A stretch of 64,000 nucleotides of DNA from a virus: IMG/VR virus record IMGVR_UViG_3300009678_001574; one strand, given 5' to 3'. A program made the translations under genes and the position numbers. This document shows, in pieces, positions 793-40,988 of the stretch. Position 1 is the stretch's first letter. Each line of letters opens with the position of its first letter. The notes beneath the pieces are model-generated. The model searched no databases, was not told where the DNA came from, and saw nothing but the letters and a program-made list of their open reading frames with translations.

Positions 793-795
793 AAC

Positions 796-1508: not shown

Positions 1509-1513
1509 TTAAG

Positions 1514-2469: not shown

Positions 2470-2684
2470 GCAAAGAACCGTATCTGATTTCTCCACAACT
2501 ATTAAAGAGTATCCAGATTGGCGATGCAATAGATCGAGAACTATTATTAGACTATACTAAAGGACTTATGCACGGAGCGAAGACGCCCGAGCTAAGAATC
2601 TATTGGACCATTATCAATAAGTGGGCCAACAAACATTTTATTACGAAGCATTTTACGGAAGAAGACGATGAAGCAATACCTTGA
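2466..2684 (+). CDS. Hypothetical protein
   Basis: 72-aa ORF overlapping both neighbours. Confidence 0.55.
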
Positions 2685-3486: not shown

Positions 3487-3487
3487 A

Positions 3488-3847: not shown

Positions 3848-4332
3848 TATCAATGATAGCGGCGATGACTGATAATAGAGTCATCGGCAAGGATAATGAA
3901 TTACCCTGGCATGTACCCGAAGATCTAAAATGGTTTAAAGAACAAACGGCGGGCAAACCAGTATTAATGGGACGCCGAACGCACGAATCTATTGGCCGAG
4001 TGTTAAAGGGTAGAGACAACCTAGTTATTACAAATAACAAAAGCTATAAGCCGTTACACGAATCGGTTAAGGTGTATAATAAGTTAGATGATGCTATAAA
4101 ATTATACCAAGGCGAAAAAGAGCTCGTAGTAATAGGTGGGCAGCAGATATATGAGCAATGTCTCAAATATTCATCAAGAATATACCTCACAATATTTCAC
4201 ACTGATATAGAAGGCGACGCATTTTTCCCAGAAATAGATAATAAACAGTGGAAGTCGAACATGATTAAAGCTGTAACTGACAGCCCCATTGTTAATTTTA
4301 ATTACGAATTTTATATATTAGAAAGGGTTTGA
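3844..4332 (+). CDS. folA: Dihydrofolate reductase
   Basis: NRVIGKDNELPWHVPEDLKWFK, MGRRT.ESIGR.L..R, VIGG.QIY, GDAFFP. Confidence 0.96.
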   Translation: MISMIAAMTDNRVIGKDNELPWHVPEDLKWFKEQTAGKPVLMGRRTHESIGRVLKGRDNLVITNNKSYKPLHESVKVYNKLDDAIKLYQGEKELVVIGGQQIYEQCLKYSSRIYLTIFHTDIEGDAFFPEIDNKQWKSNMIKAVTDSPIVNFNYEFYILERV

Positions 4333-4832
4333 CAATGTTGAGTATTCTTGCTATATTACTAATGATAGGACTTTCTTTTTACGCGTGGTGTTATATCCAC
4401 GAAATGTCTCATATTCTGATGGCTAAAAAGCGAGTAGGGCTTGAGTGGTTTAAGTTAAAGCTTTATCCACATATGAACGAAGGATCATTACGATGGGCTG
4501 CGTGTGAATATCTACCTAAAAAGCAGCCTACGCCAGAAGATGTAGCACTTATTTCATTAGCGCCCAGAATACCAGATTTGCTTGCATGTTGGCTATTCAT
4601 ACTTACGCCGTTATTTTCGGGGTGGTTCGCAGTTGCGTGGTTTATATTCTTTGGCGCAGGAATTATAGACTTGATTAATGGATCTATTGGATTTTCGCCT
4701 AATTCTGATTTGCAGAAGGCGGTAGCAACTGGTACTACAAAAACAGACGCAAAGGGATTAAGAATATTGGGACTTGCCTTCGTTGTCGTATCTATTGGAT
4801 TAACTGTATTATCGTATTTTGTGAGGTTGTAA
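4329..4832 (+). CDS. Membrane zinc metallopeptidase, M50-like
   Basis: Transmembrane segments with HEMSH (HExxH) and ISLAP motif. Confidence 0.55.
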   Translation: MTMLSILAILLMIGLSFYAWCYIHEMSHILMAKKRVGLEWFKLKLYPHMNEGSLRWAACEYLPKKQPTPEDVALISLAPRIPDLLACWLFILTPLFSGWFAVAWFIFFGAGIIDLINGSIGFSPNSDLQKAVATGTTKTDAKGLRILGLAFVVVSIGLTVLSYFVRL

Positions 4833-5579
4833 ATGGGCTTATTTGATTTTTTCTCTAATTTAGTTAAGAAGCAAACGGCTACTGTTCCATATAAGCAGCA
4901 ACAGCCCATTGTAGTCATAGTGCCATCCACTACAGTAACTCAGCCAGTCGTTGCTGCGCCTTTATTAGATTTGGGTGCAGTAACTTATAAAGAATCTCCA
5001 AATAAATCTGATCGCAGAGATGAAGTTCGGGGTATAGTATTACATCACACAGGGCCCGGATCCTTCAACGGTATAGTAAATTGGTTGATAGATCCCGCCG
5101 CCAAAGCATCAGCGCATTACGTGTTGGGTGTTAAAGGTGAATTAACGCAATTGGTTAATACCAGTCGAAATGCATGGCACGCTGGTAAAAGTAAGGCCAC
5201 GTTAGACGGTGCTGTGAGAGACGACCTAAATCACTGCACTATAGGCATTGAAATATGTAATGCTGGTGTATTACAAAAGGGCGAAGACGGCAAGTTTTAT
5301 TACGAAGCTGGCCGCGAAATGAAAGAGTGGAAAGGCGAGACGCCCGTAGAAGGATCGATAACATACCCAAGCGGACATACTGTTTCGGGTTATTATGTTC
5401 CGTATCCCAAAGTACAAGTCGACAAATTGGTGGAGTTATGTAAAGCTCTTGTTGCTAAATATCCACAGATAGGCAAAGAAGACATGCTAACTCACTACGC
5501 AATCGCTACTCCAGAAGGACGAAAGAATGATCCCTTTGGATTAGATATCCCGGCCGTCATTAAGGCGGTATTCGGATAA
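4833..5579 (+). CDS. N-acetylmuramoyl-L-alanine amidase (Amidase_2), probable endolysin
   Basis: IVLHHT, ASAHYV, AWHAGKS, N..TIGIEI, THYAIA...RKNDP. Confidence 0.9.
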   Translation: MGLFDFFSNLVKKQTATVPYKQQQPIVVIVPSTTVTQPVVAAPLLDLGAVTYKESPNKSDRRDEVRGIVLHHTGPGSFNGIVNWLIDPAAKASAHYVLGVKGELTQLVNTSRNAWHAGKSKATLDGAVRDDLNHCTIGIEICNAGVLQKGEDGKFYYEAGREMKEWKGETPVEGSITYPSGHTVSGYYVPYPKVQVDKLVELCKALVAKYPQIGKEDMLTHYAIATPEGRKNDPFGLDIPAVIKAVFG

Positions 5580-5619
5580 GGAGAGAGGAGAAATGTTTAA
5601 TTAGGTTAAGGGAGTTCGT

Positions 5620-6132
5620 ATGCAAAATGCATTGTTATTAGATAGAAATTATATGGCAATATCAGTAGTACCGTGGCAGAGAGCAATCAAGCTTACGGTA
5701 AAAGGTAAGGCAGAAGTAGTAAGTGAGGGTCAGTCTGAAGTTACCAGCGGTTCCGGTAAGCGTTTCAGAATACCTTCTATTATAAGACTATTGACTGTTG
5801 TGCCTTTTAGAGCATATAATGGACGACTCAGATTTAATCGTAAGAATGTACTGATTAGAGATGGATTTGAGTGTCAATATTGTAGTAAGCACTTAGGAAA
5901 GCTATCAGGGACAATTGATCATATCATTCCCCGATCGCGCGGTGGAGCAAGCGATTATTTAAATTGTATTGCGTGCTGCAAAGAGTGTAATAACATAAAG
6001 GGTGATAGAACTCCAGAAGAGGCAAAGTTTAAGCTCAAGAAGGCGCCTAAAAAGCCATCCTTCTTAACTTTATACAAGCACTATATGAAGAATTCACCCC
6101 AAGAATGGTCAGATTATATCATAGGATTATAA
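5620..6132 (+). CDS. HNH endonuclease
   Basis: NVLIRDGFECQYC, TIDHIIPRSRGG, NCIACCKECNNIKG. Confidence 0.9.
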   Translation: MQNALLLDRNYMAISVVPWQRAIKLTVKGKAEVVSEGQSEVTSGSGKRFRIPSIIRLLTVVPFRAYNGRLRFNRKNVLIRDGFECQYCSKHLGKLSGTIDHIIPRSRGGASDYLNCIACCKECNNIKGDRTPEEAKFKLKKAPKKPSFLTLYKHYMKNSPQEWSDYIIGL

Positions 6133-6136
6133 CATA

Positions 6137-6334
6137 ATGAAAATAACTTTTGAAGATGGCAGTTTTATTATGTTTGACATAACTAATAATTTTGATCAAC
6201 TAAACCTAATTATGTGTGGGCTTCAGGGCAGCAACAAGCTCACGATGTCATCTTCGAAACTCAACAGGGAACAGGTAGAGCAGGTAGTCAAGTTCTTGGA
6301 AAGCTGGCTTCAGCAACCATCAACTAATACTTAA
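6137..6334 (+). CDS. Hypothetical protein
   Basis: 65-aa ORF. Confidence 0.5.
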   Translation: MKITFEDGSFIMFDITNNFDQLNLIMCGLQGSNKLTMSSSKLNREQVEQVVKFLESWLQQPSTNT

Positions 6335-6420
6335 TTTTCTGTCCCCCTGCGGTGTATAATAAAAATGTACCAGGATAAGCTGGCACAGTAGTAGACAATT
6401 TTTATAAGGAGAAAGAAAAA

Positions 6421-6621
6421 ATGTCAACATCAAGAAACACCCGTCGACAGGGTTCAATTTGGTCGCGTGAAGAAGTTCGTACACTACGTAAGGTATTTGG
6501 CAACAGCCCAAATGTCAAAGTAGCAACCCTTCTACAACGTTCAGCAAAAGCGGTAGAACGCAAGGCTTCAAAGTTGGGCCTTCAGAAGACTCAAAAGTAT
6601 TTACGTACTTTAGGTCGGTAA
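6421..6621 (+). CDS. Small basic Myb/SANT-like HTH protein
   Basis: WSREEVRTLRK...VA.LL.RS..AVERKASKLGL; AAGGAG RBS. Confidence 0.6.
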   Translation: MSTSRNTRRQGSIWSREEVRTLRKVFGNSPNVKVATLLQRSAKAVERKASKLGLQKTQKYLRTLGR

Positions 6622-6632
6622 AACCACTAAAT

Positions 6633-6666
6633 AAAGGCCGCCCCATTCAGGGCGGCCTTTTACTTT
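6633..6666 (+). terminator. Intrinsic terminator
   Basis: aaaggccgccc-cattca-gggcggccttt hairpin with T tail. Confidence 0.8.
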
Positions 6667-6697
6667 CGCACTTAACAATTAAGACAAGAGAACACAC

Positions 6698-7762
6698 ATG
6701 AGTAAGTTAGAAAATGCACCATATGCCTTTACCTACGATGATTTCTTTTTAGCACCGGTGCATTCAAGTGTTAGATCACGTAAAGACCCCGACGTTTCCG
6801 TCGCACTTCCCGGATTACAATTAGACATACCGATACTTTCTTCCCCAATGAATACTATTACGGAAGAAGAGATGACACGGTGTATGCGCCAACAAGGCGC
6901 TGGGGCTGTGTTGCACCGTTACTTGTCCATCGAAGACCAGGTAGCTAAGTGTCGCAACCTACAGGACGTGTTAGCGGCTGAAGGTTCCAAGGCTGCGTTT
7001 TTCGTAGCGATAGGCGCTACGGGCGACTTCTTAGAACGAGCCCAAGAGCTTACAAAGGTGGGCGTTAATAACTTCTGTATAGACGTGGCAAATGGACACA
7101 ACCAGAACTGCATCGATGCCACCACGGTTATCCGGTCCAAGTTGCCCAGGTCTAAGATTATGGCTGGCAACGTTTGTACGTACGACGGCGCTGTGCGGTT
7201 AGCTAGCGCCGGGGCCACGAGTATACGCGTAGGCATCGGTCCCGGAAGCATGTGCACCACACGTATAGTCACGGGCCATGGCATTCCTCAACTTACGGCT
7301 CTAGAGGACTGTGCTAAGATACGGAACATGGGTTTCGAAAACGTCGCGCTGATAGCAGACGGTGGCATACGAAATTCAGGCGACCTGGTAAAGTCCCTTG
7401 CTATAGGTGCCGATGCTGTGATTTTAGGAAGTCTGCTTGCTGGGACTAAAGAAACGCCCGGTGAATTTATAGAAGAAGGTGGCCGCTTGTATAAGTATTA
7501 TGCAGGTATGGCCTCCGAACATGGTCGAGCCTCTTGGTTTGACCGTGGCAAGACAAGCTTCATTCCGGAAGGTGTATCGACCAAAGTTCCGTTTGAAGGC
7601 AAAGCGGCTTATAAAGTGGTAGAAAACTTAATAGGCGGATTAAGAAGCGGGATGTCTTACGCTAATGCAACCAGTATCCAAGAATTAAGAAATAACGCAA
7701 AGTGGATGCGCGTGACAGCCGCAGGTTACCAAGAAGGTACCCCGCACGGAAAAAGGGGCTGA
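6698..7762 (+). CDS. guaB: IMP dehydrogenase / GMP reductase family enzyme (no CBS domains)
   Basis: [26 protein letters not shown] catalytic Cys loop, IADGGIR.SGD..K.LA.GAD, GMAS; IMPDH vs GMPR not resolved. Confidence 0.85.
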
Positions 7763-7765
7763 AAA

Positions 7766-8218
7766 ATGAGTTTGTTATACATAGGCGTTAGAGTTGAAAT
7801 TTCAAATAGAAGTTCAAAAATTAAAGGAATAAAAGAAAGTTACTTTAAGAATTATAACACCGAAAATATTTTTGATTACCACGAAAATGGCAAAATAACT
7901 GTAGAACGAACTCAAGAGATGCTCATAGTTCGTGGCAAGACTGAAGACAAATTTACGACTGGGTTAATAAACTTTTCGGTTATGAATCCTTTGAGCGACG
8001 ACCCAAAAGAAATTAGCCGGTTAGTTAAGATAGTGAACGTACTAGGCAACGACCGGCTAATAAAAGAGCGCGTTAAGACTTTCGTAGAAGGTAAATCAAT
8101 GATAAACAATTTAGCAGAGTTCAAAGGGCTGGTTAAAGTGTTTATGAATATTAACGAAATATCGCCCGGCTTCATAGAGAGTGCTTGGTACTACGCGCCC
8201 GAAGCTAAACTAAAATAA
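7766..8218 (+). CDS. Hypothetical protein
   Basis: 150-aa ORF. Confidence 0.55.
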   Translation: MSLLYIGVRVEISNRSSKIKGIKESYFKNYNTENIFDYHENGKITVERTQEMLIVRGKTEDKFTTGLINFSVMNPLSDDPKEISRLVKIVNVLGNDRLIKERVKTFVEGKSMINNLAEFKGLVKVFMNINEISPGFIESAWYYAPEAKLK

Positions 8219-8389
8219 GTGGATACGGAATTGAAACGTTTGTATCGATTAGCTCTAGCCGGCGTTTGGAAAGTAACCGTGACTGACCTAGGCGAATATT
8301 ACAGCGTACACTTCTTGTACGGCGACGAAGAAACCAAGTATTACAAACGCAGCAGAGACTATCCAAAGCCAGTGATTATTAAATGTTAA
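8219..8389 (+). CDS. Small protein of the hxxhYxxxL family (not in ORF track)
   Basis: Hand translation MDTELKRLYRLALAGVWKV... (56 aa, GTG start abutting upstream stop). Confidence 0.55.
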   Translation: MDTELKRLYRLALAGVWKVTVTDLGEYYSVHFLYGDEETKYYKRSRDYPKPVIIKC

Positions 8390-8649
8390 CCGATGATAAC
8401 GTAGATAGCGTAAAACGTTTGTACCAAGAGTTTTTAGTTAAAAAGTGGTCATGGAATCGAATAGACATAGACGATAGCCTCAATAGTATATGGATACAAA
8501 CTTGGCTTAAACAAGGTGGGCACACAGCAATAGGACAGCCTATAGTGCTGTGGAAAATTAATAACTACCCAAAGGGTTATGATCATGAGCTGGATAGTTT
8601 ATATGGTAAGATTAAAAAATGGTTCCTTGTACACTGGGATAACAAATAA
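8383..8649 (+). CDS. Small protein, probable hxxhYxxxL family member
   Basis: DSVKRLYQEFLVKKW. Confidence 0.5.
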   Translation: MLTDDNVDSVKRLYQEFLVKKWSWNRIDIDDSLNSIWIQTWLKQGGHTAIGQPIVLWKINNYPKGYDHELDSLYGKIKKWFLVHWDNK

Positions 8650-8872
8650 TTTAGAACGCCGCCTCAAGACCCACGCAGACGGTAAAGGTTCCAAGTACGT
8701 TCGCTCGCATTTACCATTCGAATTGGTGTATAAAGAAATAGTAGCTGATCAAAGTGCAGCTCTAATTCGTGAAGCCGAAATAAAAAGTAAAAATGTTAAG
8801 TATAAACAAGGGCTAATTAACAGCCCTCTTAATACAATGAAGGAGAAAGACAATGAAGAAATTTCCAATTGA
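8585..8872 (+). CDS. GIY-YIG nuclease (UPF0213/YhbQ-like)
   Basis: WIVYMVRLKNGSLYTGITNNLERRLKTH..GKGSKY. Confidence 0.9.
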   Translation: MSWIVYMVRLKNGSLYTGITNNLERRLKTHADGKGSKYVRSHLPFELVYKEIVADQSAALIREAEIKSKNVKYKQGLINSPLNTMKEKDNEEISN

Positions 8873-9152
8873 ACCGCTATTCGATCGCGTGTTCGTAAAG
8901 AAAGATAATGCCGAGAAAACCGAATCAGGTTTTCACTTGCCACAAACTGTTAAAGGCCGCGCCGTTACAGGCACGGTAGTAGCAGCAGGTCAAGGTCGTC
9001 TAAATACTGAAACGGGTAAGATTTTACCGCTGATGCTGAAGGCCGGAGATCGCGTATATGTAAAGGAATTTAGCGGCTATACTATTAGATACAACGACGA
9101 AGAAGTATTTGTATTCGCAGAGAATGAAATTATAGGAAAGCTGGTTGAGTAA
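8853..9152 (+). CDS. groES: Co-chaperonin GroES
   Basis: PLFDRVFV, TESGFHLP, GTVVAAGQG, LKAGDRV, E.EIIG. Confidence 0.92.
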   Translation: MKKFPIEPLFDRVFVKKDNAEKTESGFHLPQTVKGRAVTGTVVAAGQGRLNTETGKILPLMLKAGDRVYVKEFSGYTIRYNDEEVFVFAENEIIGKLVE

Positions 9153-9620
9153 ATGATTAGGTTAACCGTCGAGTTAGTACCAGAAACGTGCTGGTATTCT
9201 AACGTCCGCAGCAATGTCTCAAAAGAAGATTGGGATAAACTTCGTAAGGCTGTGTATGTCAAGGCGGGATATGTGTGCGAAATATGTGGTGGTAAAGGCT
9301 CTAAGTGGCCTGTAGAATGCCATGAAGTTTGGCACTACAACGACGACGAGCATATTCAAACTTTAGAAAGAATGATAGCTTTGTGTCCAAGTTGCCACGA
9401 AGTTAAACACATAGGCTTTGCTAACGTTCGCGGTCGCTATGGCCGCGCGTTAAATCATTTAGCTTACGTAAACGGTTGGACTCCAGAGCAAGCCGAAGAA
9501 TACATAGCAACGCAATTTATATTGTGGAAAGAACGCTCTAAGCATACTTGGCAATTAAACATAGAATGCTTGGGTGACTACACAGGTATGAAGGACGGTA
9601 AGAATGAAGACGATAAATAA
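9153..9620 (+). CDS. HNH endonuclease
   Basis: ELVP..CW..NVR, CEICGG, VECHEVW, LCPSCHEVKH. Confidence 0.8.
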   Translation: MIRLTVELVPETCWYSNVRSNVSKEDWDKLRKAVYVKAGYVCEICGGKGSKWPVECHEVWHYNDDEHIQTLERMIALCPSCHEVKHIGFANVRGRYGRALNHLAYVNGWTPEQAEEYIATQFILWKERSKHTWQLNIECLGDYTGMKDGKNEDDK

Positions 9621-10798
9621 GAGCAAAAGTAAGGGCAAAAAGAAAAAGGCAAAGATAGATGCGGCCTACTTAGAGAAAGAGGCTAAGAAGTTATTTGATG
9701 AGCAATTCGATGAAGATACTGTACCCGTAGATATAGGCGATATAGTAATTTTTCTAGGTGAACTTACTGCTTACTTAAAAAGCAAGGAAGACGACGATGA
9801 GTGATATGTACGCAAAACTTAAAGAGCAAGCGCGAGAAAGCCAGAAGCGTTGGGATAAAATCGAAAGTATCATTAGCCATATGAAACAACGCAACAAAGA
9901 TGGCGAAGACCTATGGGAAGATGAAATCATAGAGTGTCTAGAGCTATTAATGTTAAACCTTCGTCCTGCTTCGAACGTAGAAGCTGAATTATCCAATCTT
10001 GAAAACAGTTTGTTTAATTTAGAGAAAACTTTTGGTAAGGTTAAGTAATGAGCAAATTTGGCATAACCAATTTGTTCCCCAATTTTAACTCTCGTGATTT
10101 ATCAAAAAAAGAATTGGAACAAATAATTAAGGAAGCTGTCGCGCGAGAACATCCTATGCGTTCTGTTAAGGAAGTCATATATAACAAGGATGGCGTAGAA
10201 GTTACTTTGGATAGCGGAGAAGTAATAGAAGTAGAAATAGATTGGCAAGAATTTGTGTTGAGGTAGCTATGACTGATTTTGGCAAAATAATGCGTCGCGG
10301 CAAACGAAGATTCAACATCAAGCAAAATGCCCCCATATCAAAGTGGGATCGTTGTGAGGCTTGCGATGTAAGAATCGAAGTATTTCCTTACAACGATGAG
10401 AAAGGTGAAGTGTGGTTGTTATGCGCAGAATGCACAAATTTGTTTGTGAAAGATGAGGAGAAATGAGAACAATTAATTCAAATCAAAATGAACTGTTTTC
10501 CGATACAAACGACAGCTCTATGACCGTTGCAATAGTAATGGATACAGACCGACAGCCTTGTTGGTATGTACAAGTAGAGAGGGCCGAGGAACAAAAAGAT
10601 TATTCGTGGAGAGTGGGAGTGAAAGGCAGCACTCATACTGAAGAACACGAGTTTAAATTTTCCGAAATTGGTAAGTCTAATGATGCGGAGACATGGAATT
10701 TAGTAAGCAGTCCAAATTTTCCCTTTAAGCTATTAGAGAAGTTTAAGGTCGGAGGGAAAAAAGCAGTTAAGGACTGGTTCAAAAATGGGTGTCCCTAG
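9604..10798 (+). CDS. Run of five small hypothetical ORFs (9604-9804, 9797-10048, 10048-10266, 10269-10466, 10463-10798)
   Basis: Overlapping start/stop junctions; no recognisable family. Confidence 0.5.
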
Positions 10799-11081
10799 GA
10801 TAGCATTAACACTATCTAGTATAATATTAAAGGCAATAGATATAATAACTACCTATTTGTTTGTTGACAAGATGGGTAGCATGGCTGAAGCAAATCCTAT
10901 AGTTCGAGAATCAATTAACTATTTTGGATTAACACCAGCGCTAGGTTTAAATTTCGCTTATTCGGTATTAGTTATAATACTGGCACACAGGCTAAAATTA
11001 AAAAGAGCACAGTGGGGAGTGGCAATTATCTTGCTGCTCGTATGTATAAATAATATCACGCAGATGATATTATTCTATTAG
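10785..11081 (+). CDS. Membrane protein, DUF5658-like
   Basis: DIITTY.....G..EANP motif between hydrophobic helices. Confidence 0.5.
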   Translation: MGVPRIALTLSSIILKAIDIITTYLFVDKMGSMAEANPIVRESINYFGLTPALGLNFAYSVLVIILAHRLKLKRAQWGVAIILLLVCINNITQMILFY

Positions 11082-11090
11082 GAGTAGATT

Positions 11091-11480
11091 ATGAAAAGAA
11101 TTCTTAGCACATTAGGTCTGATATTTTTAATTAGTTGCACGGCGTCGGCTGGTGAAAAATCGCAAGTAGAAAAGGATAGTCTAGCTAAACTCAAAACCTT
11201 TGAAGACAACATGGTGCAGATAACAGCACAACAAACCGTTGGCAGGGATGTTAAACTTGAAGTTCTTGAACGCGGCTTCTTTGATAATCATCTATTGGCT
11301 GTAGTGCATTTTCATTTTGTAGAAAAGCCATCAGAAGCAAATCCACAGGCAATGTCAGGACACATATTTTTTATCTTAGGTAGAATGAAGACGACTGAAG
11401 AATGGGTGCCAATGAATAACTTTAGTCGATTAGACGCGCCACCAGATGCTCCGAGTGGAGGAGAGGGAGAAAAGCTTTAA
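11091..11480 (+). CDS. Secreted protein / lipoprotein
   Basis: MKR-hydrophobic-LISC signal peptide. Confidence 0.55.
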   Translation: MKRILSTLGLIFLISCTASAGEKSQVEKDSLAKLKTFEDNMVQITAQQTVGRDVKLEVLERGFFDNHLLAVVHFHFVEKPSEANPQAMSGHIFFILGRMKTTEEWVPMNNFSRLDAPPDAPSGGEGEKL

Positions 11481-11797
11481 TGGCTAACTTCGACGAAATA
11501 CTTACTAAAGGCAAGGGCAAAGTCAAAGGCTCTGGCGGAACTAAAACTAAAAAAGACCAATGGAAAGAACATATTAGTTTGCTCATAACCATTATGACCA
11601 AACTCAATGGTATGTATGGTGCCGATGACAAGCATCATTTTCTAGTAGAACAAGCAAAATGCGGGAAGTGCAACAAGGTAACGTATCTGATTGCTATCAG
11701 GGATATTGAAAACAATAAACAGGTAATCAGATTTCATAATTCTTCTTGGAAGGTGATTAGCAAAGACACCTATCACTGTGATGTGTGCAAGAAGTAA
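11480..11797 (+). CDS. Hypothetical zinc-ribbon protein
   Basis: CGKC and CDVC pairs. Confidence 0.5.
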   Translation: MANFDEILTKGKGKVKGSGGTKTKKDQWKEHISLLITIMTKLNGMYGADDKHHFLVEQAKCGKCNKVTYLIAIRDIENNKQVIRFHNSSWKVISKDTYHCDVCKK

Positions 11798-11807
11798 TGA
11801 GGTTAAA

Positions 11808-12905
11808 GTGAATACTGTATTGGTAGACTTACAGTTAGGCGATTGTGGGAAAGGAAAGATAGCAGATCATTTAATGGAAGAACATGACATATGCGTTAGA
11901 TACTCTGGTGGGCCTAACACCGGAACAACCGTATGGACGAATGGAATTAAATATAAATTACATCATCTCCCTGTTGGACTCTTACGAAACAAGCCGAGCT
12001 ATATAGCACAAACTTGTCTAGTGAATCCTGCCAAGTTGATGAAAGAAATAATTGAATTAAAAGAATTGGGCTTTGATGTGGATAAGAATTTGAAGATTTC
12101 TCCACACTGTCACGTAATTACACAAGAACATATAGAGCGTGATATAGCTAATGAAACGAGCGGCTTAAGTTCTGGCGGCGTTGGTTCGACAAAGCAAGGT
12201 ATATCACCTTGTTCCCAAGACAAATACGCACGCAAGGGAATTCGTTTAGTAGAGCACGGCGGCTTTGAAAAATACTTGGCCGATGTACCACTTGATTTGA
12301 ACCATGCCATCAAACGCGGTAAGAGTATTTTATTTCAAAGCTCACAAGGTACGATGTTGGATATAGACCATGGTAATTATCCGTTTGTTTCTACAACCTC
12401 TAATATTGCCGGTGCAGCAGCTATGGCATGTGGCATAGGCCCACAATATATAAATAAGGTTATTGGTGTGTTTAAGCCCTATCTAACTTATGTTGGTGTG
12501 GGTGAATTCCCAACTGAAATAGCTGATGAGCAAGTTAATGCAACAATAGCAGAACGAGGCTATGAGTATGGAACTACCACAGGCCGTCGGCGTCGTATCG
12601 GTTGGTTAGATTTACCAGCGCTTGCTTATGCCTGTATGATTAACGGAGTACAAGAATTGGCTGTTACCAAGTCTGATGTACTAGAAGATATGCCAGTTCA
12701 ATATAGTGATCGTTGTTTGTTAGAAAATGGCGCATCCATTTATCTGCCATTTGACCATAAATATAAGGCTTGTTTAAAGAATGCTGATAACGTTAGAGAC
12801 CTATTGTATATTGTTACGGAAGACCTCAAGCGTATATACGACTTGGGTATTAGATTAAAATATATTTCCACAGGTAAGAATAGGGAAGAGATGAGGATAC
12901 TATGA
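11808..12905 (+). CDS. purA: Adenylosuccinate synthetase (short form)
   Basis: QLGDCGKGK, R.SGGPNTG.T, G.GSTKQGI, QGTMLDIDHG.YPFV, YGTTTGR.RRIGWLD; GTG start with GAGG RBS. Confidence 0.92.
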   Translation: MNTVLVDLQLGDCGKGKIADHLMEEHDICVRYSGGPNTGTTVWTNGIKYKLHHLPVGLLRNKPSYIAQTCLVNPAKLMKEIIELKELGFDVDKNLKISPHCHVITQEHIERDIANETSGLSSGGVGSTKQGISPCSQDKYARKGIRLVEHGGFEKYLADVPLDLNHAIKRGKSILFQSSQGTMLDIDHGNYPFVSTTSNIAGAAAMACGIGPQYINKVIGVFKPYLTYVGVGEFPTEIADEQVNATIAERGYEYGTTTGRRRRIGWLDLPALAYACMINGVQELAVTKSDVLEDMPVQYSDRCLLENGASIYLPFDHKYKACLKNADNVRDLLYIVTEDLKRIYDLGIRLKYISTGKNREEMRIL

Positions 12906-19460: not shown

Positions 19461-19504
19461 TTAAATATACCTATAAACCTGCGGTGGCGGTGGGTCTGCA
19501 AAGT

Positions 19505-19730
19505 TTGCATAGTGCGCAATCCGGAATCGCTGGCCTGTATAACCTTTTTGCATATCCCGCAACTTTTGCATACAACGCAGCGGAATGCGGTAGGAAAAGA
19601 TTGCATACCTCGCAAACATTGCACAATCGCCACGAATTGCGGACCCGGAAAAGATTGCATACGTCGCAAAAATTGCATACCGCGCAGGCCAAAACGGCGC
19701 CGAACCACGCAAAAATTGCATACGTCGCAA
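19505..19730. repeat. Array 1 of TTGC-N7-GCAA palindromes
   Basis: Perfect copies at 19505, 19548, 19601, 19655, 19716; imperfect at 19566, 19619, 19673. Confidence 0.9.
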
Positions 19731-19741
19731 GTTTTTTTTTC

Positions 19742-19771
19742 TTGACAACGCACCGCGTCATGCGGCAAAAT
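19742..19771 (+). promoter_or_regulatory. Sigma70-like promoter P1 with palindrome in spacer
   Basis: TTGACA-ACGCACCGCGTCATGCGG(18)-CAAAAT. Confidence 0.6.
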
Positions 19772-19952: not shown

Positions 19953-20228
19953 ATGAACACCGTCCAGACCAGCACCGTCCCCGCCATCGTCGAGACCCCG
20001 GAGCAGGAGCTCACCCGTCTCCGCGCCGAGAATGAGGCGCTCAAGGCTGTCAAGGCCCAGGGTATCAAGGGCATGAAGGTGAGCGAGAAGGGCGCCTTGT
20101 CCATCTACGGCCTCGGTCGCTTCCCGGTCACGCTGTACCGTAGCCAGTGGGAGGCCCTGCTCGCCAAGGCGGAGGACATCAAGGCCTTCATCGAGGCGAA
20201 CGCGGCGAAGCTCAAAGCCAAGGAGTAG
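19953..20228 (+). CDS. Early protein A; coiled coil plus PC4-like beta module
   Basis: GC-rich codons; KVSEKGALSIYGLGRFPVTLY..QW; fold assignment is inference. Confidence 0.75.
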   Translation: MNTVQTSTVPAIVETPEQELTRLRAENEALKAVKAQGIKGMKVSEKGALSIYGLGRFPVTLYRSQWEALLAKAEDIKAFIEANAAKLKAKE

Positions 20229-21105: not shown

Positions 21106-21180
21106 ACGCGGTGCAGCAAAATTTTGACGCGGTGCGTCGGTCGATTTTTGTTGACAACGCGGTGCGTCAAGCGGCAAAAT
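21106..21180 (+). promoter_or_regulatory. Sigma70-like promoter P3 with three ACGC-N3-GCG operator-like sites
   Basis: TTGACA(21151)-ACGCGGTGCGTCAAGCGG(18)-CAAAAT; sites at 21106, 21127 and 21157. Confidence 0.65.
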
Positions 21181-21462: not shown

Positions 21463-21549
21463 CCTAGTCTAAAGCAGCCGGCAGTAGTTAGGCCGCCAGT
21501 CCAAAGCCTGGGAAAGCTCCTAACGGAGTTCAATGCTGATGGGACCTAG
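21463..21549 (+). ncRNA. Twister ribozyme 1; predicted cut 21470/21471
   Basis: U^AA-AGC-A-GC, P3 CGGC/GCCG, P4 CCAG/CUGG, L4 UCCAAAGC, P5, then GCU-GA-UGGG; P2 AGC/GCU and T2 UCCA/UGGG covary relative to other copies. Confidence 0.85.
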
Positions 21550-22155
21550 TAGTGAGGCTTAGTGAGTAGGTAAGGGCGTAGGTAGTTACTGCCACGTTCG
21601 AGACTCAGGCGAAAGTCAGCCAGGTCGAAGGCGTAGCATATACCGACGATAACCTCCAAGGGGCTAAGTAAGCGAACGGCGGTGTTGGCAGCGTGAGCCG
21701 TAATCATGCTGTAGTCTGGTAAGCGGGACTTTAACTCGGCTAGGTGGTGACTCTCACTCGTGTTGGTAGCCACGTTACGGTTGCCCGGTGACTAGGACTC
21801 GCATGGGAATCAGCCCTGCCTAGACAACTTCACAGAGCTTCGGCTCTTGGATTCTATCAGCTTGCGCTTCTGGTAAGGCATATAGCTTTACTCGAAGGCG
21901 TGGTTAGTGGGCTGATAGTCTTACGCTCTCGCAGTTAAAGAGAGCACGCACATGACCACACTCCTCGTTAGGCTTAGATTATGCTAAGCCACGAAAAACT
22001 CGCTTGGTGAGTGGGCCTATTTGGCTGACACCACAAGCCTGCGAGCGGAGTAGTGGTGGCGTGTTTTCGCCAAGCCTAACGAGCGCTTTAGGGGCCGCGC
22101 AGTTCAACCGCGCAATGGTCCCAGAGTTGTGGGTTACCTTGGTGCAAGAAAACCC
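21546..22155 (+). ncRNA. Candidate large structured ncRNA between twisters 1 and 2
   Basis: No convincing long ORF; long-range helices 21574-82/21920-28, 21854-61/21911-18, 21964-75/22072-83; UUCG hairpin 21834-47. Confidence 0.55.
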
Positions 22156-22220
22156 TCGTAATGCGGCAAGCGTATGCTTACGGTCACAAGCCCGTGTAAA
22201 CGCAGAGTGAGAAAGACGAG
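22155..22220 (+). ncRNA. Twister ribozyme 2; predicted cut 22159/22160
   Basis: U^AAUGCGGC, P3 AAGC/GCUU, P4 ACGG/CCGU, L4 UCACAAGC, GCA-GA-GUGA (T2 UCAC/GUGA). Confidence 0.92.
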
Positions 22221-22222
22221 TC

Positions 22223-22435
22223 ATGGATTACTCGTATCTGAAGCATTTGTCCGATGCTCAGTTGCGTACACTCAAGGTCCGGTACGCAATGGCAAAGGGC
22301 AACAGTTGGGAACACAAGCTCTTTTGCGCCGTGGATAGAGTGCTTACCGACCGCGAAGGCGTAACGCACTTCAAGACCGGGCGCATGGGAGACTGCCTGC
22401 ACATGGACCCACTCATGAACCCGAAAGGAATCTGA
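22223..22435 (+). CDS. Early protein E
   Basis: 70-aa ORF directly after twister 2. Confidence 0.6.
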   Translation: MDYSYLKHLSDAQLRTLKVRYAMAKGNSWEHKLFCAVDRVLTDREGVTHFKTGRMGDCLHMDPLMNPKGI

Positions 22436-22438
22436 CCG

Positions 22439-22882
22439 ATGAGCACACAGGAACCCAAAGACAAACCCGGAGTCGTCAACGGCTCCTTCGTCCGCAAAGA
22501 CTTCTACCTCTCACCGCCCGTCAAGGGAGCGCCGGTGGAAGCGTGGGAAGCCTGGCAGAAAGCGGACGACTTGCTTGCCGCCAACGCCAAGCGGAAGCAC
22601 ACCAAGAGCCTCAAGCACGAAGAGGTGCCTGAGTTCCTCCAGCCCAAGGTGCTTAGCAAGGTTGGCGGCGTCTACCGGCAGTCGGCGATGGTGGGCTTCA
22701 TCGGGGACGGAGATACCGCCCGAGTGGAAGCGGCCGTGGATGCCGAGCAGGGCAAGGTGCTGGCGCTCAACTCCTTCCGTCATGGTGGGCGTGGGCAGCA
22801 GACCGCTAGTCGCTCTGGTTCGGCCAAGCGTGCAGCTCGACGGGCAGCGAAGGAAGCCCGCCGCAAGAATACTCGGCACTAA
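22439..22882 (+). CDS. Early protein F (basic C-terminal tail)
   Basis: GC-rich codon usage. Confidence 0.7.
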   Translation: MSTQEPKDKPGVVNGSFVRKDFYLSPPVKGAPVEAWEAWQKADDLLAANAKRKHTKSLKHEEVPEFLQPKVLSKVGGVYRQSAMVGFIGDGDTARVEAAVDAEQGKVLALNSFRHGGRGQQTASRSGSAKRAARRAAKEARRKNTRH

Positions 22883-22901
22883 CACACAAGGGCGCTCACC
22901 C

Positions 22902-22970
22902 GCCCGCTAATGCAGCCTGGAGCAATCCCGCTCTAGCCAGTCACAAGCCTGGATAAATGCAGAGTGGCAT
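22902..22970 (+). ncRNA. Twister ribozyme 3; predicted cut 22908/22909
   Basis: U^AAUGCAGC, P3 CUGGAGC/GCUCUAG, P4 CCAG/CUGG, L4 UCACAAGC, GCA-GA-GUGG. Confidence 0.92.
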
Positions 22971-23040
22971 GTAGGTGGTAGGCACACATATACACACACA
23001 CCTACATACACATACAGTGTGCCAAGAAAGGGTTAAGTAC

Positions 23041-23328
23041 ATGACTGCTACCGAATTTCTCAAGAGCAAGAACGTTCCCTTCGATGGCTTGGATGCGGGC
23101 CAGTGCCGCACCATCGCCAAGGCCTACGGCTGGGCTGCTCCGAAGGCGGGCGTCAGCGTGGTGAGCTACACGCCGACCCAGAGCAAGAAGGGTCCGGGCC
23201 TCTACCTCAAGGTGGAGATCGAGGGAGCGCGTGAGGGCATGTTCCGCCTCTGCGACGGCAACGAGCTCACCCCGGCGGCCCGTGAGGTCATCGCCACCAT
23301 CGGCAACGACTGCGCCGACCTGCTGTAA
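23041..23328 (+). CDS. Early protein G
   Basis: ATG at 23041; GC-rich codons. Confidence 0.7.
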   Translation: MTATEFLKSKNVPFDGLDAGQCRTIAKAYGWAAPKAGVSVVSYTPTQSKKGPGLYLKVEIEGAREGMFRLCDGNELTPAAREVIATIGNDCADLL

Positions 23329-23356
23329 GACAAAGGCACCTGGGCAAGTGTAGAAA

Positions 23357-23420
23357 CTGCCCTGTTAATGCGGCCGGGATAGCCCGCAGGTCACAAGCCC
23401 TGGTAAACGCAGAGTGGCAC
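23357..23420 (+). ncRNA. Twister ribozyme 4; predicted cut 23366/23367
   Basis: U^AAUGCGGC, P3 CGGG/CCCG, P4 CAGG/CCUG, L4 UCACAAGC, GCA-GA-GUGG. Confidence 0.92.
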
Positions 23421-23438
23421 CTCAAACCGGGAGTGAGC

Positions 23439-23789
23439 ATGGGAAGCAGCAACCACAAAGGCATGGACACGTACAACCGCATCATCACCGACGCGCGAGC
23501 CACTGGCAAGCCTATCGGTCCGCAGTTCCACAAGTTCGACTTCCAGCGCAAGATATGGGAGAAGATGAACCTCACCCAGCCGGAAGCGAAGGTGCTCACC
23601 CAGACCCGTACCGCCCAAGCCGTCGTGACCAAAGACCAGACCCGAGAGGCCATCAAGGCCAAGCTCACGGTCAAGGTCACAGCGCCACAGCCTCAGTCCC
23701 TCCGCGAGAAGTACCAGGCTGAGCAACTCAAGAAAATCGCGGACGGCTACAAGGTCGAAGAAGGCATCAAGTACGTCAGCAAAGAGTAG
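23439..23789 (+). CDS. Early protein H
   Basis: GGAG RBS; GC-rich codons. Confidence 0.7.
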   Translation: MGSSNHKGMDTYNRIITDARATGKPIGPQFHKFDFQRKIWEKMNLTQPEAKVLTQTRTAQAVVTKDQTREAIKAKLTVKVTAPQPQSLREKYQAEQLKKIADGYKVEEGIKYVSKE

Positions 23790-23975
23790 TCCCACCCACA
23801 CGGAAGGAAAGGACATGCTGCGTAAAATTTAGCGCCAGTGGCTAAGGCGCGGTATAAGTGCCCACCTACTCCCTTGCGCCTGGACTTGGGAATCAGTAGT
23901 TAAAGCAGGCTGGATACACGGGAGCTACTCATGCTCTGCTCGTGACCGTGTATCGAGATATTGTAGGTAGAGCAA

Positions 23976-24038
23976 TGTTGTTAATGCCACCTGCATAGTG
24001 CAGCCGGTTCCAAGTCCGGAGAAGGCAGAGGAACAACA
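23976..24038 (+). ncRNA. Twister ribozyme 5; predicted cut 23982/23983
   Basis: P1 UGUUG/CAACA, U^AA-UGCC-AC, P3 CUGCA/UGCAG, P4 CCGG/CCGG, L4 UUCCAAGU; T1 AC/GU and T2 UUCC/GGAA covary. Confidence 0.92.
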
Positions 24039-24051
24039 CAAGGAGAAGCCA

Positions 24052-24213
24052 ATGCTCAAGCACAGCCTCGGTGACAAGCTCCGCCCGTTCATCCGTGAAA
24101 CCGTCAAGGCCAACGTGGAGAAGGCCAACCCGCATCTCACCAGCAACCCCAAGCTCCTCGACAACGTGACCCGCTCCATCATCACCAAGGGCCTCGCTCC
24201 TCTGTACCTGTAG
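24052..24213 (+). CDS. Early protein I (53 aa)
   Basis: AGGAG RBS right after twister 5; GC-rich codons. Confidence 0.7.
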   Translation: MLKHSLGDKLRPFIRETVKANVEKANPHLTSNPKLLDNVTRSIITKGLAPLYL

Positions 24214-24248
24214 CTCTCCCGCCCTCTATTGGACTCAGAGGCATGTGA

Positions 24249-24323
24249 GTCCTTAATGCGGCTAGGCACGGTCAAAGCCTAGGAGTCCCAAGCCTCCACA
24301 AACGCAGAGGGATACGAAAGGAC
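24249..24323 (+). ncRNA. Twister ribozyme 6; predicted cut 24254/24255
   Basis: U^AAUGCGGC, P3 UAGGC/GCCUA, P4 GGAG/CUCC, L4 UCCCAAGC, GCA-GA-GGGA. Confidence 0.92.
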
Positions 24324-24429
24324 GTGTATGTATCATAAGTAAGCGCCTAGAAAACTAGTAAGGGCGCAACGACAGAAATACTTACCTAGCACACTCACGT
24401 ATACCTAGGCAATGTGCGTGAGTGTGTGA

Positions 24430-24488
24430 CAGTGTAATGCGGCTATGAGTGGTCCCAAGCCCACCTGAGAAACGCAGAGGGAATCACA
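24430..24488 (+). ncRNA. Twister ribozyme 7 (no P3); predicted cut 24435/24436
   Basis: U^AAUGCGGC, P4 GUGG/CCAC, L4 UCCCAAGC, GCA-GA-GGGA. Confidence 0.9.
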
Positions 24489-24502
24489 ACAAAGGAGAAA
24501 GT

Positions 24503-24724
24503 ATGCTCAAGGTCATTGGTGCGATCACGTTGGTCGGTGGCTTGGCTTTCGGTGCGGCCTACTTCGGCGGGTACATCGACGGCAAGGCAGAGGTTCAGGT
24601 CACGGAGCAGGGTCGCAAGGCTGCTTCGGACACTCTTCGTAGCGCGCAGCAGGGCATCAGCAACGGGCTGAACCGTGCGGCTGATGCGGTCCACAGTGCC
24701 GAGGTTCCCAGCACCCAGCGGTAA
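24503..24724 (+). CDS. Early protein J, N-terminal membrane anchor
   Basis: AAAGGAG RBS; MLKVIGAITLVGGLAFGAAYFGG. Confidence 0.75.
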   Translation: MLKVIGAITLVGGLAFGAAYFGGYIDGKAEVQVTEQGRKAASDTLRSAQQGISNGLNRAADAVHSAEVPSTQR

Positions 24725-24914
24725 GTCGTAGGTTACATAGCTAATCATCCGTCGCCGAAAGGGAAAGGGAAAGGGAATAGTACACAAGCGCCAAGTTAAA
24801 GACGCTCTAAGGCGTAAGCCTACTTGAGCACACTAACAGTAACACGGCGCATCCTTTGAACGAGTAGGAACAGGTCGTTGATTAGCGTTTGATTAAAAGG
24901 CGGGTTAAATGTCC

Positions 24915-24995
24915 TGCCTCAATGCAGCTAGATGGATGCCCTATCTGTCTAACGGTCCCAAGCCCGTAAAGCGCAACGCAAATGCAGAGGGTACA
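24915..24995 (+). ncRNA. Twister ribozyme 8; predicted cut 24920/24921 (C^A)
   Basis: C^AAUGCAGC, P3, P4 ACGG/CCGU, L4 UCCCAAGC, small P5 GCG/CGC, GCA-GA-GGG. Confidence 0.85.
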
Positions 24996-38752: not shown

Positions 38753-39190
38753 ATGAGCGAAGAAAACAAAGACGGTTTGCTCTCAGCCCTTCATTCGGCC
38801 TTCCAAGTTCTCAATGAGCGTAAGGCTAACAGGGACAAGGTTGCCCGGTTGCTTGCGACTCATGATAAGTTGGTTGCTACTGCTGAAGAGGAAGTGGAAA
38901 CTCTCAAGAAGAAGCATGGATTGGACCGCAAGGACCGTGCATCTAAAGAAGAGATGACGGCCATTCGAGCCAAGCTCCGCATCGTTCTTCGTGAGGCCCA
39001 GGGCGAGCCGATGTATCCGTCGCAGATTGCGGAGGATGCTGAACTGTCCGACATTGACCAAGTTCGGCGAGTCCTTCGTGAGATGGTTCAGACGGATGGG
39101 CCTGTGAAGAATATCCAAGAATCCCGTAGGGAATCGCAATACTACTGGGATGCTACTTGGAGGTCTCCAAGTCCAAGCCAACATGACTGA
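38753..39190 (+). CDS. Coiled-coil plus winged-helix protein
   Basis: IRIVL...GEPMYPSQIAEDAELSDIDQVRRVLREMV..G.V. Confidence 0.5.
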   Translation: MSEENKDGLLSALHSAFQVLNERKANRDKVARLLATHDKLVATAEEEVETLKKKHGLDRKDRASKEEMTAIRAKLRIVLREAQGEPMYPSQIAEDAELSDIDQVRRVLREMVQTDGPVKNIQESRRESQYYWDATWRSPSPSQHD

Positions 39191-39441
39191 TGCCAAGGCT
39201 GAAGAGATAAAACAATCCGAACCATTCTGGCTGCTGGTGCTTGACTTGTTCTGGTTGCTCTTCAAGCGAGCTATCTTTGCTGTAGCGTTCTTGGCAGTAG
39301 GTTATTACTACGGCTACTGTGATGGTTGGGATGACTTTCGTTTAGAATTGAAACAGATTCTACAAGGAAGAAAGCCTGCGCCTCATAGTGAGTACGAAGA
39401 AACTCTTTAGACACATTGGAGGTAAGTGTATAACTACCTCC

Positions 39442-39507
39442 TGCTTAAACTCACCGCATACATGGTGTATGCGCCAGTTCCAAGTCTGGGCAAAGAGCGA
39501 GGAAGCG
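39442..39507 (+). ncRNA. Twister ribozyme 9; predicted cut 39446/39447
   Basis: U^AA-ACUC-AC, 8-bp P3 CGCAUACA/UGUAUGCG, P4 CCAG/CUGG, L4 UUCCAAGU, GAGC-GA-GGAA; one A.C mismatch in P2. Confidence 0.8.
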
Positions 39508-39555
39508 TCATAAGTTGATGATACAATTCAGTATCCAACTATCATAGGAGAATCT

Positions 39556-39855
39556 ATGAAGACGATGCAGGAGTTGGTTGAGGCCATCACGGCCAAGGGT
39601 TTCCCCACGGAGGGCCTGGACGAGAAGCAGGTCCGCGAGCTGGGGCGAGTCCTGAAGCTGGAGGTCCCCCCGAAGGACCGCACGGTGGAGATCACCGAGT
39701 GGAAGGGGCGTCGGTACGTGAAGACCGACGGCTACGTCATCGGCACCAAGGACGGCAAGCCGGAGACGGCGAAGGGCTTGTTCTTGGAGGTCCGTGCCGT
39801 GGAGCAGGCCATCGCGGACTTGCAGGCCGCGCAGGCTCTCTTGGCCCAGGGCTAA
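39556..39855 (+). CDS. GC-rich early-type protein with PC4-like beta module
   Basis: VEITEWKGRRYVKTDG...KGLFLEV; host-like codon usage; AGGAG RBS. Confidence 0.65.
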   Translation: MKTMQELVEAITAKGFPTEGLDEKQVRELGRVLKLEVPPKDRTVEITEWKGRRYVKTDGYVIGTKDGKPETAKGLFLEVRAVEQAIADLQAAQALLAQG

Positions 39856-39898
39856 GAACCCGAATAGGGTAGCTGGGTCTGATTGCCCAGCTACCCCG

Positions 39899-40034
39899 TT
39901 CATCTAAAATTAGTGCTTTGAGTAAATGCGTGGAACGTGTACTTAGTAGGTGAGTAGAGTGCCGTACACTAGACAAGCGCTTGAACCGTAGTCTAAGCTC
40001 CTGCCCATTACTCAAAGCACTAATTTTAGATGAA
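39899..40034. repeat. Perfect 27-bp inverted repeat enclosing 82 bp
   Basis: ttcatctaaaattagtgctttgagtaa (39899-39925) / ttactcaaagcactaattttagatgaa (40008-40034). Confidence 0.95.
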
Positions 40035-40057
40035 TGCTAACAACAAGGAGTGAACAC

Positions 40058-40988
40058 ATGGCTCTCGAAGGCTTGAAGAAACATACACGCAAGATGGGCG
40101 TCAAGGGACAGGGCGATTTGTATGGTGGTTCTGTTAACCATGCGAAGTGGCGCGATGGTGTCGGTCGCTGTGGACACTACGATACTGAGCTGGACTCTGG
40201 CGGATTTTGCCGTGACCAAGACTGCCGGCGTGATAGACTCATCAAGGCACTCAAAGAGGGTCGCGCTCGCAAGTTGGATGACGGTACGCTCATTTGGATT
40301 ACCGCCAATGAGCCTGATGTAGTTGCTCCAGAAGAAATCAAAGAAGCAGAGTAACCAAGGAGAAGGAACATGCCCATTGAACTTGACCCCCGTGTTCGCC
40401 ATTTTCAGGAAGTCAAGCGTAAGAACAAGCTCGCAGCTATCAGGCGCAAGGAAGAGGCCGATAAGCTGAACGGCATTCGTCAGCAAATCAAGTTGGCGAA
40501 TCCTGCCGCGACTGACAATCAGGTAGAGTCTATCCTTCAGGCACATCTGAAGGCTCAAGCAGCCCGGACCATCACTGTGAACAACAAGACCGTCAAGGTC
40601 TACAACAACAACCGCTAGTACAGGGAAAGGAAGAAGTAATGAGCGAGTCCAAGAAGGTTCTTCAGCAGCTCCGAGACATCAAGAAGGGTATGGAGAAGGA
40701 CCCTGATCGTGTCGAAGAGTTCGTCATCGGTGGCAAGCACTTCAGGAACAAGGCGCCCAACATGCGTCTTGGCGACCGAGTTCGTTTCAAGGAGTCGAAG
40801 TAATGGGACGATTCAAGTTCAACCGCCGGGACATGAAAGAGAATCGTCAGAAGAATGCTCTTGCTCAGAAGGAAGAGCGAGCCAAGCGCACTCCACAGCA
40901 ACAGTTGGAGCATCTGGACACCATGTTCGGTGTAGGCCAAGGTGCTGCCAAGGAGCGCGCCCGGCTGAACAAGCAAATCTCAAGTTGA
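40058..40988 (+). CDS. Four small ORFs (40058-40354, 40370-40618, 40639-40803, 40803-40988), several basic
   Basis: Strong RBS, elevated GC. Confidence 0.6.

Follow-up and report, generated by a model that had tools for sequence, protein, structure and literature searches.

A twister ribozyme, a covarying RNA pseudoknot and a GC-rich gene at a conserved position in a large uncultured phage

The IMG/VR viral record IMGVR_UViG_3300009678_001574 provided a stretch of 64,000 nucleotides (nt), hereafter called the window, which originated from a large uncultured phage and in which nearly all the genes were small and carried by the + strand. We analysed a segment of the window in which the ninth twister ribozyme (twister 9) precedes a gene for a 99-residue protein, called ORF99 after its open reading frame (ORF). 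A preliminary description had presented this segment as an isolated, promoter-driven satellite island, 14 kb from the main ribozyme cluster. The distance was correct, as the main cluster's closest twister ended at position 24,995, 14.4 kb away, and the sequence features listed there were all found where they had been placed; the inference based on a promoter was not borne out. The features are given below in the coordinates of the window.

39183–39410, + strand: upstream gene, with a product of 75–86 amino acids (aa) containing a hydrophobic, membrane-like segment (ORF list)
39412–39441, + strand: H-type RNA pseudoknot of 30 nt (fold, descriptor scan, covariation of homologues)
39442–39507, + strand: twister 9, a type-P1 twister (match to Rfam RF03160)
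39508–39555, + strand: leader with a small hairpin and the ribosome-binding site AGGAG at 39546–39550, 5 nt before the ATG (sequence, fold)
39556–39855, + strand: ORF99, encoding a 99-aa protein (ORF list, AlphaFold2 (AF2) model, fold searches)
39862–39901, + strand: strong 3' hairpin, starting 7 nt past the ORF99 stop, without a U-tract (fold)
39899–40034, no strand assigned: perfect 27-bp inverted repeat with an 82-nt core (repeat search)
40058–40354, + strand: downstream gene, the conserved synteny partner of ORF99 (homologues in L005 and L001)
22904–23420, + strand: paralogous cassette made of a twister (22904–22970), an ORF99 paralogue (23041–23328), a pseudoknot (23337–23362) and a twister (23362–23420)

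A first metagenome scan found nothing, and a second one retrieved five loci (L001–L005). In L001, homologues of the ORF 38753–39190 (42% identity), of ORF99 (46% at the protein level) and of the downstream gene (46%; L001 5630–5917) were found in the same order. The ORF99 homologue was preceded, at 98 nt, by a twister scoring 41.6 bits and followed, at 12 nt, by a terminator-like hairpin. In L005, the order was ORF99 homologue, pseudoknot, twister, small ORF, twister and homologue of the downstream gene (589–864, 45% identity, E value of 9e-25). There, a twister stands ahead of each of the next two genes, which points to the punctuation of a polycistronic RNA and not, as had been suggested, to a selection for the chemistry of the RNA end instead of the separation of cistrons. 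Within the window, the paralogue between twisters 3 and 4 was recognised by the hidden Markov model of the family (E of 3.3e-7) and, over the first 53 columns corresponding to the N-terminal half, by hhalign (95% probability, E of 2.2e-8). The synteny with L001, the additional twisters of L005 and the paralogue in the main operon place the locus at a conserved position, and the view of an isolated satellite was abandoned. They support the existence of a conserved cassette composed of a twister, a gene rich in GC at third codon positions (GC3) and a hairpin.

Twister 9 matched RF03160 with 48.3 bits (E of 1.2e-7 in the whole window and 1.5e-9 locally). The model alignment placed the scissile bond at U39446/A39447, with UU/AA at 39445–39448 in a UAA context; this is 12 nt after the hexamer TATAAC, the spacing that had been reported. 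Helix P1 had its four pairs, one of them G-U, and P3 (eight pairs) and P4 (three pairs) were intact. P2 had three pairs out of four, the outer one, A39449/C39498, corresponding to the mismatch mentioned previously. The T1 pseudoknot associated UCC (39479–39481) with GGA (39501–39503), the other twister copies showing CCC/GGG, CAC/GUG or CCA/UGG, and T2 associated AC (39453–39454) with GU (39484–39485), most copies having GC/GC. Both stayed complementary via double, compensatory changes that twister 5 and L001 share. All the columns invariant in the other eight window twisters were kept. The presence of a twister was therefore confirmed, with helices and both pseudoknots intact apart from a single P2 pair, and we consider twister 9 likely to be catalytically active because its helices, the T1/T2 compensation and the invariant columns were maintained. 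No second ribozyme was found after ORF99 in the interval 39,300–40,100 at E values of up to 10, and a DNA pattern of the twister 9 type was not found in IMG/VR.

The pseudoknot began 2 nt after the upstream stop codon and abutted P1 without any spacer (39441/39442). Stem S1 paired 39412–39414 with 39426–39428 (CAC/GUG), and S2 paired 39418–39424 with 39435–39441 over 7 bp. The S2 hairpin (39418–39441) had a folding energy of −12.1 kcal/mol, in the top 2% of the local 34-nt windows. Similar hairpins with a near-identical loop were located at 23337–23362 before twister 4, in L005 (194–220) before a twister, and in L003 (766–791). A pattern derived from the copies of the window, L005 and L003 retrieved 36 loci from IMG/VR, of which approximately two-thirds shared the full 26-nt consensus; several held four or five copies, all on one strand. 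Copies were recorded in L009, L012–L014, L016–L019, L021–L026, L031, L033, L034 and L036–L041, the reference being L009:5258–5283 (− strand). The motif was defined by a 3-bp S1 (5' flank with loop), a 5-bp S2, a loop 3 rich in A and a location immediately past a stop codon. By this definition the sequence 39412–39441 is a diverged copy of this phage intergenic motif, with a loop 3 that differs from the "ATAAAC" variant, found in L018 and L036, by the loss of one base. The copy at 23337–23362 showed three mismatches to the consensus.

Covariation was evaluated on an alignment (A8) of 20 distinct motif copies. Pairing was observed in 96.3% of the cells, and five of the eight pairs changed on both sides; pair 1–14, the outermost one of the short helix, was C-G, A-U, G-C or U-A depending on the copy. 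The covariation score was 0.345 compared to 0.121 ± 0.022 for shuffles, none of the 500 shuffles reaching it, and the slid controls gave at most 0.068. None of the 38 motif copies was located inside a same-strand ORF. The motif started at a median of 14 nt past the upstream stop codon (typically 7–27 nt), and the next gene started at a median of 115 nt (range 15–896). With this short distance to the stop and variable distance to the next start, the motif behaves as an element of the gene 3' end. It matched no Rfam family, and no paper was found by its sequence string. We consider the motif to be new, and its covariation to be unusually clean for its size. We also considered, and rejected, that the motif might be a promoter for a single-subunit RNA polymerase of the T7 type: such a polymerase (PF00940) was not found in five motif-bearing phage records, two of which were at least 90% complete, the control genomes being unmatched too, and the covariation in both helices points instead to an RNA element. 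Pistol ribozymes above the gathering score were observed approximately 180 nt downstream of a motif copy in L016 (5118–5186, − strand) and in L024 (6623–6692, + strand).

ORF99 had a GC content of 0.65 and a GC3 of 0.93, the highest of the 156 + strand ORFs (mean 0.49, standard deviation 0.12), in agreement with its initial description as GC-rich. The other genes of the window with a high GC3 were located in the ribozyme operon. In each of the four informative loci, the ORF99-family gene had the top or joint-top GC3. A recent horizontal transfer was examined as the cause of this composition and discarded, the gene being syntenic at 46% identity and its homologues also being the GC3 maxima of their loci; these maxima point to selection on codon use rather than to recent import. 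As the codons are host-like and GC3-rich, the sequence suggests that ORF99 is made in quantity, and probably early. Among the ribozyme-adjacent genes (19953–20228, 22975–24213 and 39556–39855), GC3 ranged from 0.77 to 0.93 compared to the window mean of 0.49, and this signature may correspond to host-like codon use and an early, tRNA-independent expression.

The ORF99 family comprised proteins of approximately 100 aa in 46 representative clusters, with no Pfam or PHROG assignment. The closest relatives (P0002–P0004), from ENA and Logan, were 78–84% identical, and a search of IMG/VR with ORF99 gave no matches. The AF2 model of the monomer had a predicted local distance difference test score of 94.1. 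In the model, residues 1–34 formed a helix pair similar to a SAP/HeH (Rho-N-like) motif, defined as two short helices separated by an extended loop over approximately 35 residues. It aligned with the SAP domain of MANF (Z of 4.5, root-mean-square deviation (rmsd) of 1.7 over 34 residues) and with the Rho N-terminal domain (Z of 3.9, rmsd of 1.9). Residues 40–99 formed a five-stranded sheet followed by a long C-terminal helix. The PC4/Sub1 proteins (among them the bacterial BPSL1147 and the PC4-like protein of phage T5; PDB 5a4n, 1pcf and 4bg7) bind single-stranded DNA as dimers and fold into a four-stranded curved sheet with a C-terminal helix; the C-terminal 60 residues of the model, with a curved antiparallel sheet and a long helix, bear a weak resemblance to them. 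The top Foldseek chains for this domain belonged to the PC4 family (BPSL1147, human PC4 and MoSub1), with a probability of 0.90–0.93, E values of 0.1–0.3 and 17–24% identity.

Other comparisons set ORF99 apart from PC4/Sub1. The Pfam PC4 profile (PF02229) gave 13.1 bits (E of 0.072), far below the cut-off of 25, and only 1 of the 46 family members matched it at an E value of 0.1 or less. With VIA-align, PC4 was aligned with a Z of 4.1 and an rmsd of 6.1 over 58 residues, the Z range for PC4, BPSL1147 and the T5 protein being 3.4–4.1, whereas the PUR-alpha protein of Borrelia and COMMD reached a Z of 5.0 with an rmsd of 3.8 over 56–58 residues. The N-terminal SAP/HeH-like motif is also an addition to PC4/Sub1. 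A PDB profile search gave a weak match to BPSL1147 (E of 0.6), and a neighbouring Atlas cluster, weakly linked with a score of 0.79, was named PC4. The name "PC4-like" given previously to the gene is acceptable for a weak fold resemblance and not for membership of the PC4 family. Judging from the model, a PC4/PUR-like nucleic-acid-binding fold is a fair description, and ORF99 is probably a small dimeric nucleic-acid-binding protein made of a SAP/HeH-like motif and a PC4/PUR-like domain.

At the other end of the gene, the 11-bp hairpin reported at 39867–39896 was confirmed with 11 Watson-Crick pairs and one additional G-U pair. With the outer pairs included (39862–39901) its energy was −28.5 kcal/mol (z of −6.9), and none of 200 shuffles folded as well. 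It had no T-run and was not listed by the terminator scan, so that it does not qualify as an intrinsic terminator. Hairpins existed at the equivalent position in L001, where the scan listed a terminator-like one, and in L005. The inverted repeat that follows was the sole one of at least 20 bp within 200 nt in the window. The corresponding slot held the twister, small ORF and twister in L005, and a hairpin with an extra ORF in L001; the repeat has the appearance of an exchangeable insert or of a site for RNase III-type processing.

The preliminary description had placed a promoter immediately before twister 9. The two hexamers were indeed present at the exact coordinates and with the proper spacing: TTTAGA (39406–39411) and TATAAC (39429–39434), separated by 17 bp, matched the sigma-70 hexamers at four and five positions out of six, respectively. 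Per window, 0.06 occurrences of this exact pattern are expected, a value to be read with the knowledge that the pattern was defined after the fact. A sigma-70 scan of the window, searching for hexamers 16–18 bp apart and for a −10 box whose second and sixth positions are A and T, respectively, did not list the site 39406–39434 because its −10 hexamer is devoid of the last T, and the site is not a sigma-70 promoter by this rule. The −35 hexamer overlapped the stop codon of the upstream gene, and TATAAC corresponded exactly to loop 3 of the pseudoknot. No terminator-like site was listed by the scan between the upstream gene and twister 9. The main operon possessed two near-identical promoter-like 30-mers (at 19742 and 21151; TTGACA, 18 bp, CAAAAT), which had no counterpart at the island. 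The homologues of the pseudoknot covary and sit after stop codons in co-directional gene runs, which implies that the RNA preceding the twister is made and used, and that transcription would start upstream of 39412. A start site at approximately 39441 is hard to reconcile with such a transcribed and selected RNA. The proposal of a promoter firing approximately 5 nt before a ribozyme that trims the 5'-triphosphate end was not retained, given that the box is a loop of a covarying pseudoknot and that no upstream terminator was listed in the scan. It is tempting to read an AT-rich loop of an RNA structure as a −10 box, and the present analysis corrects this error.

On balance, we favour the view that the locus is one unit of phage ribozyme-punctuated expression, installed at a conserved position, and not a promoter-driven island. 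In this model, transcription would most probably enter from upstream via the co-directional run of small genes, and the transcript would pass the 30-nt pseudoknot just past the upstream stop codon and then the type-P1 twister. Self-cleavage of the twister would take place at U39446/A39447, 5 nt past the pseudoknot. The upstream product would terminate with the compact pseudoknot and a 2',3'-cyclic phosphate, forming a cap against 3' exonucleases. The downstream product would be a single-gene ORF99 message headed by the folded twister body and its 5'-hydroxyl, exposing a free AGGAG site and ending at or near the 3' hairpin. We further suggest, tentatively, that the 26–30-nt pseudoknot might represent an undescribed and widespread class of phage RNA that protects message 3' ends and is coupled here to twisters as a cut-and-cap module. 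If true, the motif may block exonucleases or dock a protein, and a long transcript would be converted into individually stabilised single-gene messenger RNAs (mRNAs).

Results from engineering fit this cut-and-cap reading. In Escherichia coli, twister-cut polycistrons expressed all their cistrons only with a stem-loop just upstream of each cut (PMC9872166), and a leader-removing ribozyme increased transcript and protein levels (PMC6206723). The processing of long transcripts by phage ribozymes was proposed in 2011 (PMC3088659); according to a review, the role of ribozymes in bacteria and phages is still open and the transcript-processing idea unproven (PMC6765202). Of the two functions previously envisaged for the island, stabilisation or circularisation, a role in RNA-end protection is plausible; nothing in the window supports circularisation, since only one end of the ORF99 message carries a ribozyme.

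Several observations weigh against the cut-and-cap reading. The score of twister 9 is below the Rfam gathering score of 67.2 bits, as are those of the eight main-operon twisters (21466–24995; 37.9–59.2 bits), and the A-C mismatch of its P2 helix adjoins the active site. The association of twisters with a preceding hairpin is weak: over the nine copies of the window, a combined Fisher test gave p = 0.03, only twisters 1 and 9 stood out, and neither the L001 twister nor the second L005 twister had such a hairpin. Most motif copies of other phages stand without a ribozyme, so that their job need not be 3' capping. Lastly, the gene just upstream of the L001 twister, a GIY-YIG/NUMOD3 endonuclease (4054–4830), lies on the − strand, opposite to the twister, so that a promoter could fit nearby and a start site close to this twister is possible.

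This last arrangement speaks in favour of a sigma-70-type promoter starting an RNA at approximately 39441, of which twister 9 would trim the first nucleotides, converting a 5'-triphosphate into a 5'-hydroxyl in the manner of a natural RiboJ-like insulator or stabiliser. In L001, the twister is approximately 20–50 nt from the divergent endonuclease gene, and a sigma-70-like site there would start transcription approximately 20 nt before the cut. A halovirus hammerhead is located within 3 nt of a mapped early-transcript 5' end (PMC3088659), RiboJ increases expression (PMC6206723), and the hexamers are present at the right spacing. We nevertheless consider this explanation unlikely for the window, where the −10 box without its final T failed the scan, the −35 box runs into a stop codon, the putative box is a loop of a covarying pseudoknot whose homologues differ at that place and sit in operons after stop codons, no upstream terminator was listed, and the 30-mer of the main operon is absent. 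It is likewise improbable that twister 9 is a decaying, inactive relic surrounded by unrelated leftovers. Its score of 48.3 bits and the A-C pair would fit such a decay, and L002–L004, in which family members were present and no ribozyme was detected at E values of up to 10, indicate that the gene family can do without one. However, the sub-threshold score is common to the eight operon copies, the columns invariant among these are all kept, double changes have kept T1 and T2 fully complementary, and a twister is found at the orthologous site of L001 despite a protein identity of 46%.

Two other explanations concern the partners of the ribozyme. The pseudoknot could be a sensor of a ligand or of the ORF99-family protein, gating the folding of P1 and making cleavage and ORF99 output conditional, with feedback. 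The size of the pseudoknot and its A-rich loop 3 resemble those of the smallest riboswitch pseudoknots. It directly abuts P1, the motif lies directly beside four of the six ORF99-family genes examined (twice in the window, and in L003 and L005), and ORF99 is a predicted nucleic-acid binder. Such a sensor is nonetheless quite improbable: none of the 36 viral loci retrieved with the motif pattern encoded an ORF99-family protein, most copies have no adjacent ribozyme, and no alternative pairing of the pseudoknot with the 3' strand of twister 9 was seen. The ribozyme ends could also serve for circularisation or ligation, the 5'-hydroxyl and the 2',3'-cyclic phosphate being joined by an RtcB-type or phage ligase. 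In L005, a twister comes after the ORF99 homologue; L001 encodes, within 4 kb, both an RNA ligase of the Rnl1 type and a Thg1-like enzyme; and an AAA_33 P-loop kinase adjoins the gene in L002 and L003. This is very unlikely to apply here, where the message has a 5' ribozyme only and no RNA ligase is found among the ten largest ORFs of the window; for the clustered hammerheads, Perreault et al. detected no spliced or circular products (PMC3088659).

Twister 9 resembles the RF03160 twisters of phage and prophage operons by its P1-P2-P3-P4 layout, UAA cleavage context, AAG loop core and T1 and T2 pseudoknots, as well as by its intergenic position in a co-directional gene run. It departs from the norm of this family by its score below the cut-off, its mismatched outer P2 pair and the separate conserved pseudoknot directly before it, and from other RF03160 twisters by being kept at an orthologous site before one gene family. 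The arrangement recalls the clustered prophage hammerheads (Perreault et al. 2011, PMC3088659), which lie on either side of individual genes or short segments within one long transcript; they were proposed to yield gene-length mRNAs, although their purpose is unproven. The two systems use different ribozyme classes, and in the present one the cleaved RNAs are bordered by a covarying 3' pseudoknot and a 3' hairpin. The succession of a stable structure upstream of the cut, the ribozyme body and an exposed ribosome-binding site downstream is similar to that of pRAP (PMC9872166) and RiboJ (PMC6206723), but these are synthetic E. coli constructs, and the phage element is a pseudoknot, not a plain stem-loop, with a putative protective effect. 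The layout mirrors the one that synthetic biologists needed for the expression of ribozyme-cut polycistrons. What is new here is the link of a gene family to twisters and the covarying pseudoknot abutting a ribozyme. The locus reveals a multi-copy phage RNA motif new to Rfam, and constitutes a compact test case for the role of phage ribozymes, with an orthologous twister flanked by a pseudoknot on the upstream product and a hairpin on the downstream one.

The ATG of the upstream gene at 39183 overlapped the stop codon of the ORF 38753–39190. In a PHROGs search with ORF99 and nine neighbours, the ORF at 35950 was the sole one to match, to families of unknown function only. Nothing was found in IMG/VR with the neighbours of ORF99, and blastn and tblastn against deposited phages gave no matches. 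In the main operon, the first promoter-like 30-mer (window 19480–19771; the second in 21120–21180) was preceded by at least six repeats of a "TTGCATAC..CGCAA"-type box, which are probably regulator binding sites. A shared TGTATAAC octamer at 19536 was tried as a promoter signal and rejected, with three copies for 1.9 expected.

Additional observations were made in the related loci. In L001, the GIY-YIG/NUMOD3 homing endonuclease was inserted antisense directly before the twister. The Rnl1-type RNA ligase, the Thg1-like enzyme and a metallophosphatase (6981–8069, 9044–9844 and 3365–4057, all on the + strand) are RNA-repair-type genes located near RNAs expected to have 5'-hydroxyl and cyclic-phosphate ends. 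The AAA_33 kinase preceded the ORF99-family gene at L002:143–595 and L003:2–394 with 25.8–26.8 bits, for a cut-off of 27. After the L002 homologue, a segment of approximately 100 nt (969–1070) showed a long closing stem around two hairpins with no Rfam match and may be a structured RNA. In the window itself, the AT-rich left part (157–12905) encoded RNase HII, thymidylate kinase, thymidylate synthase, an N-acetylmuramoyl-L-alanine amidase, an IMPDH/GMP-reductase-type enzyme and adenylosuccinate synthetase.

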